Source of the DNA: Escherichia coli
Lineage (GTDB): Bacteria > Pseudomonadota > Gammaproteobacteria > Enterobacterales > Enterobacteriaceae
Direction: 5' to 3' (one strand)
Assembly (NCBI RefSeq): GCF_003334305.1
Contig: NZ_QOWS01000010.1
DNA length: 64,000 nt
Of this stretch, positions 46,877 to 57,733 are shown in pieces; position 1 is the first letter of the stretch; each line of letters starts with the position of its first letter. The position numbers and the translations under genes are program-made. The notes under the pieces are model-generated. The model saw only the letters and a program-made list of their open reading frames with translations. It had not been told where the DNA came from and ran no database searches.

Positions 46877-47743
46877 TTAAGGGCGTGCGAGGAAATTCAG
46901 CACCAATTGATTGAAAGCGTCGGCATGTTCCCACTGCGCCCAGTGACCACAGTCGCGGAAGATATGCAGTTCAGAACCGGCAATGCCGGACAGCAGACGC
47001 AGACCCGCATCCATCGGCACAAAGCGGTCGTTGCGCCCCCAGACAATCAGGGTTTGCGCTTTGATTTCCGCCAGACGTGGGCCAAAATCCGGGAACTGTT
47101 TCGGATTAGCTTCCAGGCTCTTAACGAAGTTTTCCAGGTGATCGCGGCGCGACAGCATATTATTCAGGCGCGCTTCAAACAGGGCGTCGGTCAAATCGCT
47201 GGTATCGAAAACGAAGATATCCATCATCAGCTTCAGGTTTTCGATAGTCGGCTGACGATAAAGCTGATTCAGTCGCTTAATACCTTCGGTTGGCATCGGC
47301 GTAAACAAACTCATGCCGCCCGTACCGCCGCCCATCAGCACCAGTTTGCCGACGCGCTCCGGCCAGTTAAGGGTGAACGCCACAGAACTATGGCCGCCCA
47401 TCGAGTTGCCCAGCAGGTGGATTTTGGCGATATCCAGTTGATCCACCACGCTTTTCAGGATTCGTGCATTAAGATCCGATCGTGAACCACTATTAACGAT
47501 CGAATCGCTTTTGCCCCAACCCGGACAATCCAGCAGGATTACCCGATAGCCCGCCTCTACCAGCGGATCGATATTGCGGCTGAAGTTCGCCCAGCCAGTA
47601 GCACCCGGGCCGGAACCATGCAGCAGGACAACGGTTTCGTCGCCTTGTCCGCAGTCATTAAAATGGATGCGCAGCGTTTTACCCGCTTCTTCTACATTCA
47701 GAAAACGGCTGGTGGCGGCTTCGGTTTGTGGCTGATAACTCAT
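46877..47743 (-). CDS. mhpC: 2-hydroxy-6-ketonona-2,4-dienedioate hydrolase
   Basis: 288 codons from ATG at 47741-47743 ([14 protein letters not shown]...), alpha/beta hydrolase GNSMGG; longer upstream starts possible. Confidence 0.9.
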
Positions 47744-47760
47744 CATCTTCTCCTGCATAT

Positions 47761-48705
47761 TCAGTTCTCTGTTCTGGCGCTTAACGAGCCAAATCCGGCA
47801 ATCCACTCCGGGATTGGGCGGTAATAACGCCCTTCGCTACGCCAGTTGCCAAATGTAGAAATAGCGGCAAAAGCGGCGACCCAGGTTTTGATTTCATGTG
47901 TCGACTTTCCGGCAATGGCGGAAAGCTCTTCGTTACTGACGGCATCCAGTTCCTGTATGCGTCCCTGCTCCAGCAAAGTCATGAACTGGTTATCCCAAAT
48001 CGGGTTGAGCGGATGCAGAGTTCTCTGATCCTCAACAAACTTCTCAGCGGCGCTAATCACCCGTTGCTGACGCAATTCGCGCTCACTGGCGGGTAAATCT
48101 TTCCCGCTCCCCAACAGACGGTCGCGCATATGGGCATCGGCTTTCGCCAGTTCGGGCACCGGCGGCTGATGGGAAAGCCCACCGGAACCCAGGAACAGCA
48201 CGCGTTTATTGAGAGTGCTGGTGAAACGTCCAATGGCTTCACCCAACATGCGGGTACGCTGGAAACCGGGCAGCGGCGTGGCGACACCGTTGATGAACAC
48301 AGGCAGAACTGGCACCTTATCCAGCCCACCGAGCAGGAACTCCAGCGGCTGGGCGAACCCGTGGTCCACCTGCATACAGTAAGAAACGGCAAGATCGATC
48401 CCGCTCTTCATGACAGCATGCGCACAGGCCTCCGCCAGCTCCACAGGCACGGGCAGCTCTCCTGCCGCACTGCCGAAATCACCAATTGCCGTCGCTCCAA
48501 CGCCTAAACAGAACGGTGGCATCACGTCATAGAAAAAGCCGTTGTAGTGATCTGGCGCAAACAGCACCACCAGTTCAGGGGAGAAAGCCGCAATACGCTC
48601 GCGGGCGCTGGCAATCACGCCATTGACCTCATCGAGTACCTCTTGCGCCGGGTCGACATACCCCACCAACGGCGAGTGGGAAAGACAGTGAAGATAAGCG
48701 TGCAT
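47761..48705 (-). CDS. mhpB: 3-carboxyethylcatechol 2,3-dioxygenase (extradiol)
   Basis: 314-aa ORF recognised as MhpB. Confidence 0.95.
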
Positions 48706-48706
48706 A

Positions 48707-50371
48707 TCAGGCTACCTTTTCGACAGAAACGTCGGCATCAGGGCGGGTCAGCGTCATCACCGACGCCAGTTTATTCAGCGTATTGCCCAGGATTTGCGGA
48801 ATGGCGGTGGCGGCAACAAAGCGATCCGGGCGCATCACCACCAGCGAAGCATTGTGTTGCGCGAACCAGCTACGCAGACGACCTTGCGTATCGCCCACGC
48901 GTAGCACGCCGTCGTGGTTATCCTGTGCGGTATGAATTTGCACTTCCGGCACCACCTGAATGAAGCGTGTGCCCAACGCGCGCCACTGCTGGATTTGCTC
49001 GTCGCTCATCCCCCACAGTGGATTGCATCCCCAGCCAATTACCGCGAAGTTCGCGCCAATCGCGTTATCGAGCAGCGTCACGTCGCCGTTTTCCAGCGTG
49101 ACTTTCGGCTGAATAAACATCTTGCCGACCGGAGAGTGCTTCGCTTCGCCCTCACGTACCAGCGCACCGCCGTAATATTGCGGCATCGGCTTGAAGCGCA
49201 TTTCGAGGAAGTAGCGTTTTACTGGCGGCAGATAATTCAGTAGCCAGGAAACGCCGTCACGTAACGTACCCTGCCAGCGTTTCGGCGGAGCCAGCACGTT
49301 GCCCGCCGTCACGGACAGGTCAATCATCGCTTTGGCGTGATCGCGACGTTCTTGTTGATAGGTATCGAGCAGCGCATCGCGGGCTTTCCCCTGGATAACC
49401 AACGCCAGTTTCCAGGCGAGGTTAAAGGCGTCGCGCATACCACTGTTATAGCCCTGCCCCTGCCACACCGGCATGATGTGCGCGGCATCGCCCGCCAGCA
49501 GTACGCGATCAATACGGAAACGTTGCGCCAGTCGCGCGTTATGGGTGTAGACACGCTGGCGAATCAATTCAACATTGTCCGGATTAGGCAGCACTTTGCT
49601 TAACAGCTTGCGCATATTTTGCGGCTCACGCAGCTGCTCTTCGGTTTCTCCCGGCATCACCATAAATTCAAAGCGACGTACCGCATGAGGCAGCGCGGCA
49701 GAAACATACGGGCGCACCGGATCGCAACACAAATAGATATGCGGCGTACTTAACGGATCGTTGGCGATATCTACCACAATCCACTGATTTGGCGCAGTTT
49801 TACCTTCAAACGGCACATTCAGAGTGCGACGGACAAAACTTGCTCCACCGTCACAGGCTACCAGCCACTGGGCTTTGACCGTTTCCCGCTGCCCTTCTGC
49901 CGTTTTCAGGTGCAAGGTCACTTCGTCATTTTGCTGGCTGAAGGCCTCCAGCTCGCGGGCAAACAAGCAGCGCACATTCGGAAAACGCGACAACCCTTCC
50001 AGCATCACCGCATCGACCTGTGGCTGAATAAAGGCGTTACGGCGCGGCCAGCCAAATTCATCGGTCATTGGCTGAATATCAGCAAAACAGCGGCCTTTTG
50101 GGGTGAGAAAACGCATCGCGTGCCACGGTGTAGTGTGCGGCAGAACATTCTCGACCAGGCCGACCGACTGCATGGTGCGCAGCGCCTCGTCATCAATACC
50201 AATCGCACGCGGGTAGTCGATCAACTTATCGAGTTTCTCCACCACCAGCACGTCAATGCCCATCTGACCGAGATAGTTCGCCATCATCAGCCCAACCGGA
50301 CCGGCACCAGCGATCGCCACCTGAACGCTATGGTTAACAGCAGGCTGGATGTCAGGGTGTTGTATTGCCAT
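48707..50371 (-). CDS. mhpA: 3-(3-hydroxyphenyl)propionate hydroxylase (FAD monooxygenase)
   Basis: 554-aa ORF, FAD-binding GAGPVG motif. Confidence 0.95.
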
Positions 50372-50561
50372 TTCAGTACCTCACGACTCGGACAAAATGC
50401 CGTTGCGCGCACAGTACAGCGCAACTTATTTTGTTAAAAACATGTAAATGATTTTTTATTGTGCGCTCAGTATAGGAAGGGTGTTTTCGGCTACAATCAA
50501 AACATGCCCGAATGTGCACCAGGTGCACAACGTTGTTTTAACTATAGAAATGTCAATTAAT

Positions 50562-51395
50562 ATGCAGAACAATGAGCAGACGGAATACAAAACCGTGCGC
50601 GGCTTAACCCGCGGTCTAATGTTATTAAATATGTTAAATAAACTTGATGGCGGTGCCAGCGTCGGGCTGCTGGCGGAACTCAGCGGCCTGCATCGCACCA
50701 CTGTGCGGCGAATGCTGGAGACGCTGCAGGAAGAGGGATATGTCCGCCGTAGCCCCTCCGATGATAGTTTTCGACTGACCATCAAAGTGCGGCAATTAAG
50801 CGAAGGATTTCGTGACGAACAGTGGATTTCTGCACTGGCGGCCCCACTGCTGGGCGATCTGTTGCGCGAAGTGGTATGGCCGACAGATGTGTCCACGCTG
50901 GATGTTGATGCAATGGTGGTACGCGAAACCACTCACCGTTTCAGCCGCTTATCCTTTCACCGGGCAATGGTCGGGCGACGTTTGCCGCTTCTGAAAACCG
51001 CCTCGGGCCTGACCTGGCTGGCCTTTTGCCCGGAACAAGAACGCAAGGAATTAATCGAAATGTTAGCCGCCCGCCCCGGTGATGACTATCAACTGGCACG
51101 AGAACCGTTAAAGCTGCAAGCCATTCTGGCGCGCGCGCGCAAAGAGGGTTACGGACAGAACTACCGCGGCTGGGATCAGGAGGAGAAGATTGCCTCTATC
51201 GCCGTACCGCTGCGCAGTGAACAACGGGTGATTGGCTGTCTGAATCTGGTGTATATGGCGAGCGCAATGACCATTGAACAGGCAGCGGAAAAGCATCTTC
51301 CGGCGCTACAACGGGTAGCAAAACAGATCGAAGAAGGGGTTGAATCGCAGGCTATTCTGGTGGCCGGACGGCGAAGCGGCGTGCATTTACGTTGA
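50562..51395 (+). CDS. mhpR: IclR-family activator of the mhp operon
   Basis: 277 codons from ATG 50562 (MQNNEQTEYKTVRGLTRGLMLLN...); divergent from mhpA. Confidence 0.9.
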   Translation: MQNNEQTEYKTVRGLTRGLMLLNMLNKLDGGASVGLLAELSGLHRTTVRRMLETLQEEGYVRRSPSDDSFRLTIKVRQLSEGFRDEQWISALAAPLLGDLLREVVWPTDVSTLDVDAMVVRETTHRFSRLSFHRAMVGRRLPLLKTASGLTWLAFCPEQERKELIEMLAARPGDDYQLAREPLKLQAILARARKEGYGQNYRGWDQEEKIASIAVPLRSEQRVIGCLNLVYMASAMTIEQAAEKHLPALQRVAKQIEEGVESQAILVAGRRSGVHLR

Positions 51396-51471
51396 CACCA
51401 TCGAATGGCGCAAAACCTTTCGTGGTATGGCATGATAGCGCCCGGAAGAGAGTCAATTCAGGGTGGTGAAT

Positions 51472-52554
51472 GTGAAACCAGTAACGCTATACGATGTCGC
51501 AGAGTATGCCGGTGTCTCTTATCAGACCGTTTCTCGCGTGGTGAACCAGGCCAGCCACGTTTCTGCGAAAACGCGAGAAAAAGTGGAAGCGGCGATGGCG
51601 GAGCTGAATTACATTCCCAACCGCGTGGCACAACAACTGGCGGGCAAACAGTCGTTGCTGATTGGCGTTGCCACCTCCAGTCTGGCCCTGCACGCGCCGT
51701 CGCAAATTGTCGCGGCGATTAAATCTCGCGCCGATCAACTGGGTGCCAGCGTGGTGGTGTCGATGGTAGAACGAAGCGGCGTCGAAGCCTGTAAAGCGGC
51801 GGTGCACAATCTTCTCGCGCAACGCGTCAGTGGGCTGATCATTAACTATCCGCTGGATGACCAGGATGCCATTGATGTGGAAGCTGCCTGCACTAATGTT
51901 CCGGCGTTATTTCTTGATGTCTCTGACCAGACACCCATCAACAGTATTATTTTCTCCCATGAAGACGGTACGCGACTGGGCGTGGAGCATCTGGTCGCAT
52001 TGGGTCACCAGCAAATCGCGCTGTTAGCGGGCCCATTAAGTTCTGTCTCGGCGCGTCTGCGTCTGGCTGGCTGGCATAAATATCTCACTCGCAATCAAAT
52101 TCAGCCGATAGCGGAACGGGAAGGCGACTGGAGTGCCATGTCCGGTTTTCAACAAACCATGCAAATGCTGAATGAGGGCATCGTTCCCACTGCGATGCTG
52201 GTTGCCAACGATCAGATGGCGCTGGGCGCAATGCGCGCCATTACCGAGTCCGGGCTGCGCGTTGGTGCGGATATCTCGGTAGTGGGATACGACGATACCG
52301 AAGACAGCTCATGTTATATCCCGCCGTTAACCACCATCAAACAGGATTTTCGCCTGCTGGGGCAAACCAGCGTGGACCGCTTGCTGCAACTCTCTCAGGG
52401 CCAGGCGGTGAAGGGCAATCAGCTGTTGCCCGTCTCACTGGTGAAAAGAAAAACCACCCTGGCGCCCAATACGCAAACCGCCTCTCCCCGCGCGTTGGCC
52501 GATTCATTAATGCAGCTGGCACGACAGGTTTCCCGACTGGAAAGCGGGCAGTGA
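51472..52554 (+). CDS. lacI: Lactose operon repressor LacI
   Basis: 360 codons from GTG 51472 (VKPVTLYDVAEYAGVSYQTVSRVVNQ...), ends ...QVSRLESGQ; codon 135 reads GAT (Asp) where I recall GCT (Ala). Confidence 0.96.
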   Translation: MKPVTLYDVAEYAGVSYQTVSRVVNQASHVSAKTREKVEAAMAELNYIPNRVAQQLAGKQSLLIGVATSSLALHAPSQIVAAIKSRADQLGASVVVSMVERSGVEACKAAVHNLLAQRVSGLIINYPLDDQDAIDVEAACTNVPALFLDVSDQTPINSIIFSHEDGTRLGVEHLVALGHQQIALLAGPLSSVSARLRLAGWHKYLTRNQIQPIAEREGDWSAMSGFQQTMQMLNEGIVPTAMLVANDQMALGAMRAITESGLRVGADISVVGYDDTEDSSCYIPPLTTIKQDFRLLGQTSVDRLLQLSQGQAVKGNQLLPVSLVKRKTTLAPNTQTASPRALADSLMQLARQVSRLESGQ

Positions 52555-52567
52555 GCGCAACGCAATT
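52547..52567 (+). promoter_or_regulatory. lac operator O3
   Basis: GGCAGTGAGCGCAACGCAATT overlapping the lacI stop. Confidence 0.85.
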
Positions 52568-52589
52568 AATGTGAGTTAGCTCACTCATT
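52568..52589 (+). promoter_or_regulatory. CRP (CAP) binding site of lac promoter
   Basis: AATGTGAGTTAGCTCACTCATT, wild-type palindrome. Confidence 0.9.
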
Positions 52590-52602
52590 AGGCACCCCAG
52601 GC

Positions 52603-52632
52603 TTTACACTTTATGCTTCCGGCTCGTATGTT
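52603..52632 (+). promoter_or_regulatory. lac promoter (-35 TTTACA, -10 TATGTT, 18-bp spacer)
   Basis: TTTACA at 52603-52608 and TATGTT at 52627-52632; wild-type, not lacUV5. Confidence 0.9.
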
Positions 52633-52638
52633 GTGTGA

Positions 52639-55751
<3,113 letters not shown>

Positions 55752-55757
55752 TAATAA

Positions 55758-57056
<1,299 letters not shown>

Positions 57057-57121: not shown

Positions 57122-57733
57122 ATGAACATGTCGATGACAGAAAGAATAAAAGCAGGCAAGCTATTTACCGATATGTGCGAAGGCTTACCTGAAAAAAGAC
57201 TTCGTGGGAAAACGTTAATGTATGAGTTTAATCACTCGCATCCATCAGAAGTTGAAAAAAGGGAAAGCCTGCTTAAAGAAATGTTTGCCACGGTAGGGGA
57301 AAACGCCTGGGTAGAACCACCTGTCTATTTCTCTTACGGTTCCAACATCCATATAGGCCGCAATTTTTATGCAAATTTCAATTTAACCATTGTCGATGAC
57401 TACACGGTAACAATCGGTGATAACGTACTGATTGCACCCAACGTTACTCTTTCCGTTACGGGACACCCTGTACACCATGAATTGAGAAAAAACGGCGAGA
57501 TGTACTCTTTTCCGATAACGATTGGCAATAACGTCTGGATCGGAAGTCATGTGGTTATTAATCCAGGCGTCACCATCGGGGATAATTCTGTTATTGGCGC
57601 GGGTAGTATCGTCACAAAAGACATTCCACCAAACGTCGTGGCGGCTGGCGTTCCTTGTCGGGTTATTCGCGAAATAAACGACCGGGATAAGCAATATTAT
57701 TTCAAAGATTATAAAGTTGAATCGTCAGTTTAA
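57122..57733 (+). CDS. lacA: Galactoside O-acetyltransferase
   Basis: 203 codons from ATG 57122 (MNMSMTERIKAGKLFTDMCEGLPEKRL...), hexapeptide repeats. Confidence 0.93.
   Translation: MNMSMTERIKAGKLFTDMCEGLPEKRLRGKTLMYEFNHSHPSEVEKRESLLKEMFATVGENAWVEPPVYFSYGSNIHIGRNFYANFNLTIVDDYTVTIGDNVLIAPNVTLSVTGHPVHHELRKNGEMYSFPITIGNNVWIGSHVVINPGVTIGDNSVIGAGSIVTKDIPPNVVAAGVPCRVIREINDRDKQYYFKDYKVESSV

Follow-up and report, generated by a model that had tools for sequence, protein, structure and literature searches.

The lac region and codon 135 of lacI

The window, which is the whole analysed stretch of 64,000 nucleotides of Escherichia coli DNA, carries mhpR, lacI and lacZYA in the standard E. coli order on the + strand (Table 1). 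lacI adjoins lacZYA on the upstream side, and the operators O1, O2 and O3 were found at the canonical spacing. Neither the CAP site nor the lac promoter hexamers differ from those of K-12. Since lacZYA and the three operators are intact, the repressor sits in a complete, working lac operon.

Table 1. Positions of genes, operators and differences from K-12 in the lac region of the window
Feature	Position	Strand	Description
lacI CDS	51472..52554	+	GTG start, 360 aa and stop (52552-52554); RefSeq WP_000805907.1
lacI codon 135	51874..51876	+	GAT; GCT in K-12 and PDB reference
O3 auxiliary operator	52547..52567	+	overlaps the end of lacI; identical to K-12
O1 primary operator core	52639..52659	+	AATTGTGAGCGGATAACAATT; identical to K-12
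O2 operator inside lacZ	53040..53060	-	exact match; 401 bp downstream of the O1 centre
lacZ	52677..55751	+	intact ORF, 1024 aa
lacY	55803..57056	+	intact ORF, 417 aa
lacA	57122..57733	+	intact; from the annotation of the identical strain A7 record
lacI promoter spacer	51423		T; C in K-12
lacI Leu6	51487		TTA to CTA, synonymous
lacI Ser21	51534		TCC to TCT, synonymous
lacI Arg35	51576		CGG to CGA, synonymous
lacI codon 135, variant base	51875		Ala135Asp
Base just before the lac mRNA start, O1 edge	52638		A; G in K-12

The GTG start of lacI at 51472 was supported by end-to-end alignment with the solved LacI chains, and the coordinates match the RefSeq annotation of strain A7. An in-frame GTG at 51463 (51463-51471), 9 nt upstream of the true start, gives rise to the 363-aa LacI (MVNVKPV...) of mechanical ORF callers; such a 363-aa call, an annotation artefact, is the representative of the public protein cluster P0003 (8,442 members). 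The window protein is a full-length near-identical LacI/GalR-type repressor with an N-terminal HTH and a periplasmic-binding-protein-like sugar-binding core, and the precomputed Pfam assignments of the 90% cluster containing the exact protein are PF00356 (LacI HTH) and PF13377/PF00532/PF13407 (core). It has 359 of its 360 residues in common with K-12 LacI (UniProt P03023; WP_000805902.1 / NP_414879.3; PDB 3edc, 1lbg, 1efa), and the two genes share the GTG start, the position between mhpR and lacZYA, the O1 core, O2 and O3. Unlike K-12 lacI, the window gene has Asp135, three synonymous changes and a T instead of C at 51423 in the promoter spacer.

Codon 135, which lies 402 nt downstream of the first base of lacI, reads GAT (Asp) in the window, and the local translation is ...NYPLDDQDAIDVEAACTNV.... 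The same codon is GCT (Ala) in K-12 MG1655, so that the variant base, 51875, represents a single C-to-A transversion. Residue-by-residue alignment with the PDB chains 3edc_A and 1lbg_A also placed Ala at 135; with 3edc_A the window protein was identical at 359 of 360 residues (E = 8e-229), residue 135 being the sole mismatch over the 360 residues. The sequence-only reading had reported Asp at this codon against Ala in the reference repressor, and had named an Asp in the reference itself as the finding that would overturn it. The window sequence bears out the Asp, and the K-12 and PDB sequences bear out the Ala and dispose of that possibility. Its placement of residue 135 in the N-terminal core subdomain fits the textbook structure of LacI. 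This placement agrees with the published domain description, in which the core comprises residues 63-324 (PMC8009258).

From the lacI promoter to the lacZ start (1.3 kb), six differences were found between the window and MG1655. Four of them are in the lacI CDS, three synonymous and one non-synonymous (51875), and Ala135Asp is thus the sole amino-acid difference between the two repressors. The difference at 52638 is at lac mRNA position -1, at the junction of GTGTGA and AATTGTGAGC on the left edge of O1. Of 5,426 complete genomes, allele-specific probes matched 4,463 with A at this position and 858 with G, and the exact-match list of the K-12 55-mer with G was headed by laboratory K-12 derivatives. 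Of 20 aligned strains only K-12 had G, but the idea that it is private to K-12 was rejected on the probe counts. At -1, then, the lac promoter/operator sequence of the textbooks shows the less frequent allele.

Distribution of the Asp135 allele

In order to count the alleles of codon 135, 55-base probes were used in which the variant base is at position 28, so that every 28-base megablast seed must include the variant base. The probes were matched against 5,426 complete E. coli genomes, in 5,386 of which lacI is present. The GAT probe matched 75 genomes and the GCT probe in the K-12 context matched 4,644. As strain 61 showed, the seeds of both these probes fail where SNPs are present at 51872 and 51885, and a third probe with GCT and the nearby SNPs of the strain 61 type (protein changes I123L/I134T/T141A) was therefore designed. 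It matched 1,054 genomes, which more than covers those missed by the other two probes, and the genomes in question are also Ala135. The frequency of the Asp135 allele among complete E. coli genomes is therefore approximately 1.4% (75/5,426), and ETEC E24377A, a reference strain, is one of its carriers.

The carriers of Asp135 span several continents and come from human, chicken, duck, swine, dog, cattle, yak, mink, giant panda, echidna, baboon, orangutan and mouse hosts as well as from seawater and a sink. Among the 75 GAT carriers in the 5,426 complete genomes, no link to a host or niche was apparent. A single PLSDB match (NZ_OL790696.1) was considered as an instance of plasmid carriage of the allele and was rejected, since the record, at 4,795,340 bp, must almost certainly be a chromosome under a wrong label.

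The exact 360-aa Asp135 protein occurs on at least 1,000 contigs of a large public protein collection, where its name is 'MULTISPECIES: ... LacI [Enterobacteriaceae]'. In all 11 annotated carriers examined (ten fetched and A7) LacI is WP_000805907.1, whereas the K-12-type protein is WP_000805902.1; the LacI of E24377A, A7, AMSHJX01, 13KWH46 and others is thus identical to that of the window. Furthermore, positions 42000-64000 (22 kb) match the chromosome of strain A7, an E. coli from orangutan faeces in the USA, with 100% identity and are nearly identical to eight further genomes, and the lacI DNA is 100% identical to that of eleven complete genomes. The difference at 51875 is a single base, which is all that speaks for a sequencing or assembly error. 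The same base in 75 independently assembled complete genomes, the 22 kb of complete identity to A7 and ten further genomes with a 100% identical lacI make the chance of such an error negligible. These results indicate that the Asp135 allele is neither unique nor new and is already catalogued in RefSeq, and the suggestion from the sequence alone that it may be a natural allele was correct.

Haplotype backgrounds of the GAT codon

About 10 kb from mhpC to lacY was aligned in 20 sequences: eleven carriers, the window among them, and nine non-carriers. The 11 carrier sequences fell into at least four diverged groups of 10-kb flank haplotypes: the window (strain A7 type); E24377A; AMSHJX01, 13KWH46, HB-Coli0, 210205630, IGC, Z1322HEC0010 and O111:H21; and CRE444 with 2020S05-013. 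Between groups, 34-102 SNPs were counted over 10 kb, and these distances are as large as those to non-carriers. The window itself differs from the non-carriers WCHEC020031 and 2013C-3264 by 44 and 49 SNPs, respectively, over about 10 kb. In contrast to these diverged flanks, all sampled carriers are identical at positions 51321-51933, except for a private SNP at 51337 in O111:H21 15A. The non-carriers WCHEC020031, 2013C-3264 and M8 have the same local haplotype as the carriers and within lacI differ from it at 51875 alone, in addition to single SNPs in the promoter region. The GAT allele therefore derives, in one step, from a lacI haplotype that is widespread.

The promoter spacer base 51423 is T in the window, in all carriers and in WCHEC020031, 2013C-3264 and M8, and C in K-12, L73, ECCHD184, M217, 504239 and strain 61; this T/C difference is distinct from the lacIq change.

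The flank differences among carriers are blocky, which is the usual signature of homologous recombination in the mhp-lac region. The region as a whole (46900-57000) is a recombination mosaic in non-carriers too. In E24377A the mhpA/B segment at about 48630-49460 resembles that of K-12, and CRE444 and 2020S05-013 have in common an M8-like block in lacZ at about 53015-54900. Private-looking variants of the window at 52745-52872 were otherwise present only in strain 61, WCHEC020031 and M8. Strain 61 (NZ_CP048326.1) has, at the equivalent of 51534-51933, a divergent lacI patch on otherwise carrier-like flanks, which has the look of a short tract acquired from another lineage by recombination. The patch encodes a third LacI protein allele (I123L, I134T, T141A; WP_000805913.1), and it is this type whose probe matched the 1,054 genomes mentioned above.

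A second site within lacI, the synonymous position 52254 (Gly261), is GGG in the window and GGA in all ten other sampled carriers. GGA at Gly261 was found in 249 genomes, and the window type, GAT with GGG, in 11 genomes. As a marker of a GAT haplotype of single origin, 52254A (GGA) was rejected, since its 249 genomes stand against 75 GAT carriers. Codon 135 (GCT/GAT) and Gly261 (GGG/GGA) are 379 bp apart, and all four combinations exist. By the four-gamete test, intragenic recombination or recurrent mutation is needed to account for them, and the four combinations could thus reflect several independent origins of GAT (homoplasy). We regard such recurrent origin as unlikely, because gene conversion in E. 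coli easily yields four gametes over 379 bp, because all sampled carriers share one lacI haplotype at 51321-51933, and because C-to-A transversions belong to no known hotspot class here. The functional conclusion drawn below is the same whether GAT arose once or several times.

The distribution over these haplotypes means that Asp135 is old enough to have recombined into, or to sit on, several backgrounds. Such long segregation argues against a strongly deleterious effect of the substitution.

Repressor function and sequence tolerance at residue 135

The sequence-only reading had raised an effect of Asp135 on repressor behaviour and had proposed an IPTG dose-response as a way to examine it. 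The dose-response of A135D has already been published, in a deep mutational scan of LacI (Tack et al. 2021, Mol Syst Biol 17:e10179, Dataset EV1; PMC8009258), where A135D is among the directly measured single substitutions. The scan placed its variants of K-12 LacI on a plasmid, with MG1655 delta-lac as host, and used IPTG as inducer, a single lacO and a temperature of 37 C (PMC8009258). The substitution is the same as that of the window LacI, and because the latter has no other amino-acid change relative to K-12, the measurement transfers directly to the window protein. The contexts differ in that the scan used a plasmid, IPTG and a single lacO, whereas lacI in the window is chromosomal with its native three operators.

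The log10 values of the wild type in Dataset EV1 (PMC8009258) were 2.868+-0.020 for G0, 4.386+-0.003 for G-infinity and 2.028+-0.006 for EC50, and those of A135D were 2.864+-0.486, 4.344+-0.043 and 2.036+-0.068, respectively. The corresponding ratios of A135D to the wild type are approximately 0.99 for G0, 0.91 for G-infinity and 1.02 for EC50, all within about 1 sigma. G-infinity is nominally 9% lower than in the wild type, again at about 1 sigma, and the wide error of G0 (+-0.49 log units) is compatible with a change in leak of up to approximately 3-fold. With all three parameters within about 1 sigma of the wild type, A135D belongs to none of the known classes of LacI mutants, which show strongly altered basal expression (I-), no induction (Is) or an inverted response (Irc/inverted), and no 'est_' I- flag is given to any substitution at position 135 in Dataset EV1 (PMC8009258). 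It is apparent that A135D is silent within error for the IPTG response measured on a plasmid with a single lacO in a K-12 host; the suggested effect on repressor behaviour is not supported by these values. A full-text literature search for Ala135 in the lac repressor gave no match, the classical suppression data of the Miller laboratory (Markiewicz 1994, Suckow 1996) being outside its reach.

The neighbouring data of the scan were also inspected. The measured EC50 values (log10) of A135T (2.151+-0.078) and A135V (2.107+-0.085) are near that of the wild type, and A135G, A135P and A135S are predicted by the model of that study to be wild-type-like; at nearby positions, G-infinity falls with V136E, and changes at N125 and P127 alter EC50 by as much as ten-fold (PMC8009258). 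Double mutants with A135D are approximately log-additive, A135D/L319M, A135D/A138V and A135D/V270I being within error, and the EC50 of Y126N/A135D is 0.24 log units under the additive expectation, at about 2 sigma. Ten substitutions, A135T among them, are over-represented in strongly inverted multi-mutants, and about two of the ten are expected to be false positives (PMC8009258). This enrichment bears on multi-mutants and does not bear on A135D as a single change; it does mean that position 135 retains some influence in other backgrounds.

The comparison with orthologues covered 124 sequences, consisting of LacI cluster representatives and relatives with 68-100% identity to the query. Ala is strongly preferred in column 135 (105 of 124), the other residues being Glu (8), Thr (3), Val (2) and one each of Met, Lys, Ser, Leu and Ile. 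The single Asp in the column is the query itself. Non-Ala residues occur in orthologues with 69-82% identity, and the sequences with Glu135 include Salmonella, Shimwellia and Tatumella, which indicates that an acidic side chain at 135 is compatible with function in these orthologues. The tolerance of position 135 to Asp, Thr, Val, Glu and Lys, together with the intolerance of V136, fits a solvent-facing residue on the N-subdomain helix at approximately 130-140, a location suggested by substitution tolerance and orthologue variation.

Taken together, Ala135Asp is very probably a natural missense polymorphism of LacI that is neutral, or very close to neutral, under selection; its neutrality in nature is what we infer from the evidence above. 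A single C-to-A change at 51875 would have arisen on the lacI haplotype common to WCHEC020031, 2013C-3264, M8 and similar strains and would have replaced Ala135 by Asp in the N-terminal core subdomain, at a site that tolerates substitutions. The resulting repressor would still bind the operator, repress and respond to the inducer as the reference protein does, and the allele would have persisted, with descent and homologous recombination bringing it into several chromosomal backgrounds. A common neutral polymorphism had been named as an outcome that would refute the original observation. This outcome essentially holds, as the allele is wild-type-like and recurring; 'common' is too strong a word, the allele being a minority one at 1.4%.

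A repressor functionally tuned in its leakiness, inducer sensitivity, stability or looping and selected in a subset of E. coli lineages was also considered. The occurrence of Asp135 on several flank haplotypes could mean recombination-driven spread under selection, but mosaic flanks are normal in non-carriers too, and a frequency of just 1.4% with no host or niche association seen does not point to such a spread. The association of A135T with inverted phenotypes in multi-mutant backgrounds, the wide error of G0 and the limitation of the scan to IPTG, a plasmid, a single lacO and 37 C leave some room for tuning; the measured EC50 and G-infinity, which equal those of the wild type within 1 sigma, and the acidic and polar residues in column 135 of orthologues argue against it. 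On balance, a tuned repressor seems quite improbable. It is similarly improbable that Asp135 subtly alters the allolactose response, stability at non-laboratory temperatures or O1-O2/O3 looping, or shows epistasis with the promoter and operator variants of the strain, with selection in mostly animal- and environment-associated lineages. If true, selected tuning by Asp135 would show the lac switch being finely adjusted in nature, and would be of modest interest.

As a neutral or nearly neutral variant, Asp135 is an ordinary polymorphism, of which both the catalogued allele and the measured regulatory (IPTG) phenotype were already known. It means that a charge-introducing substitution in the N-subdomain helix at approximately 130-140 is tolerated, and that LacI as textbooks give it, with the K-12 sequence, is just one of several natural alleles.
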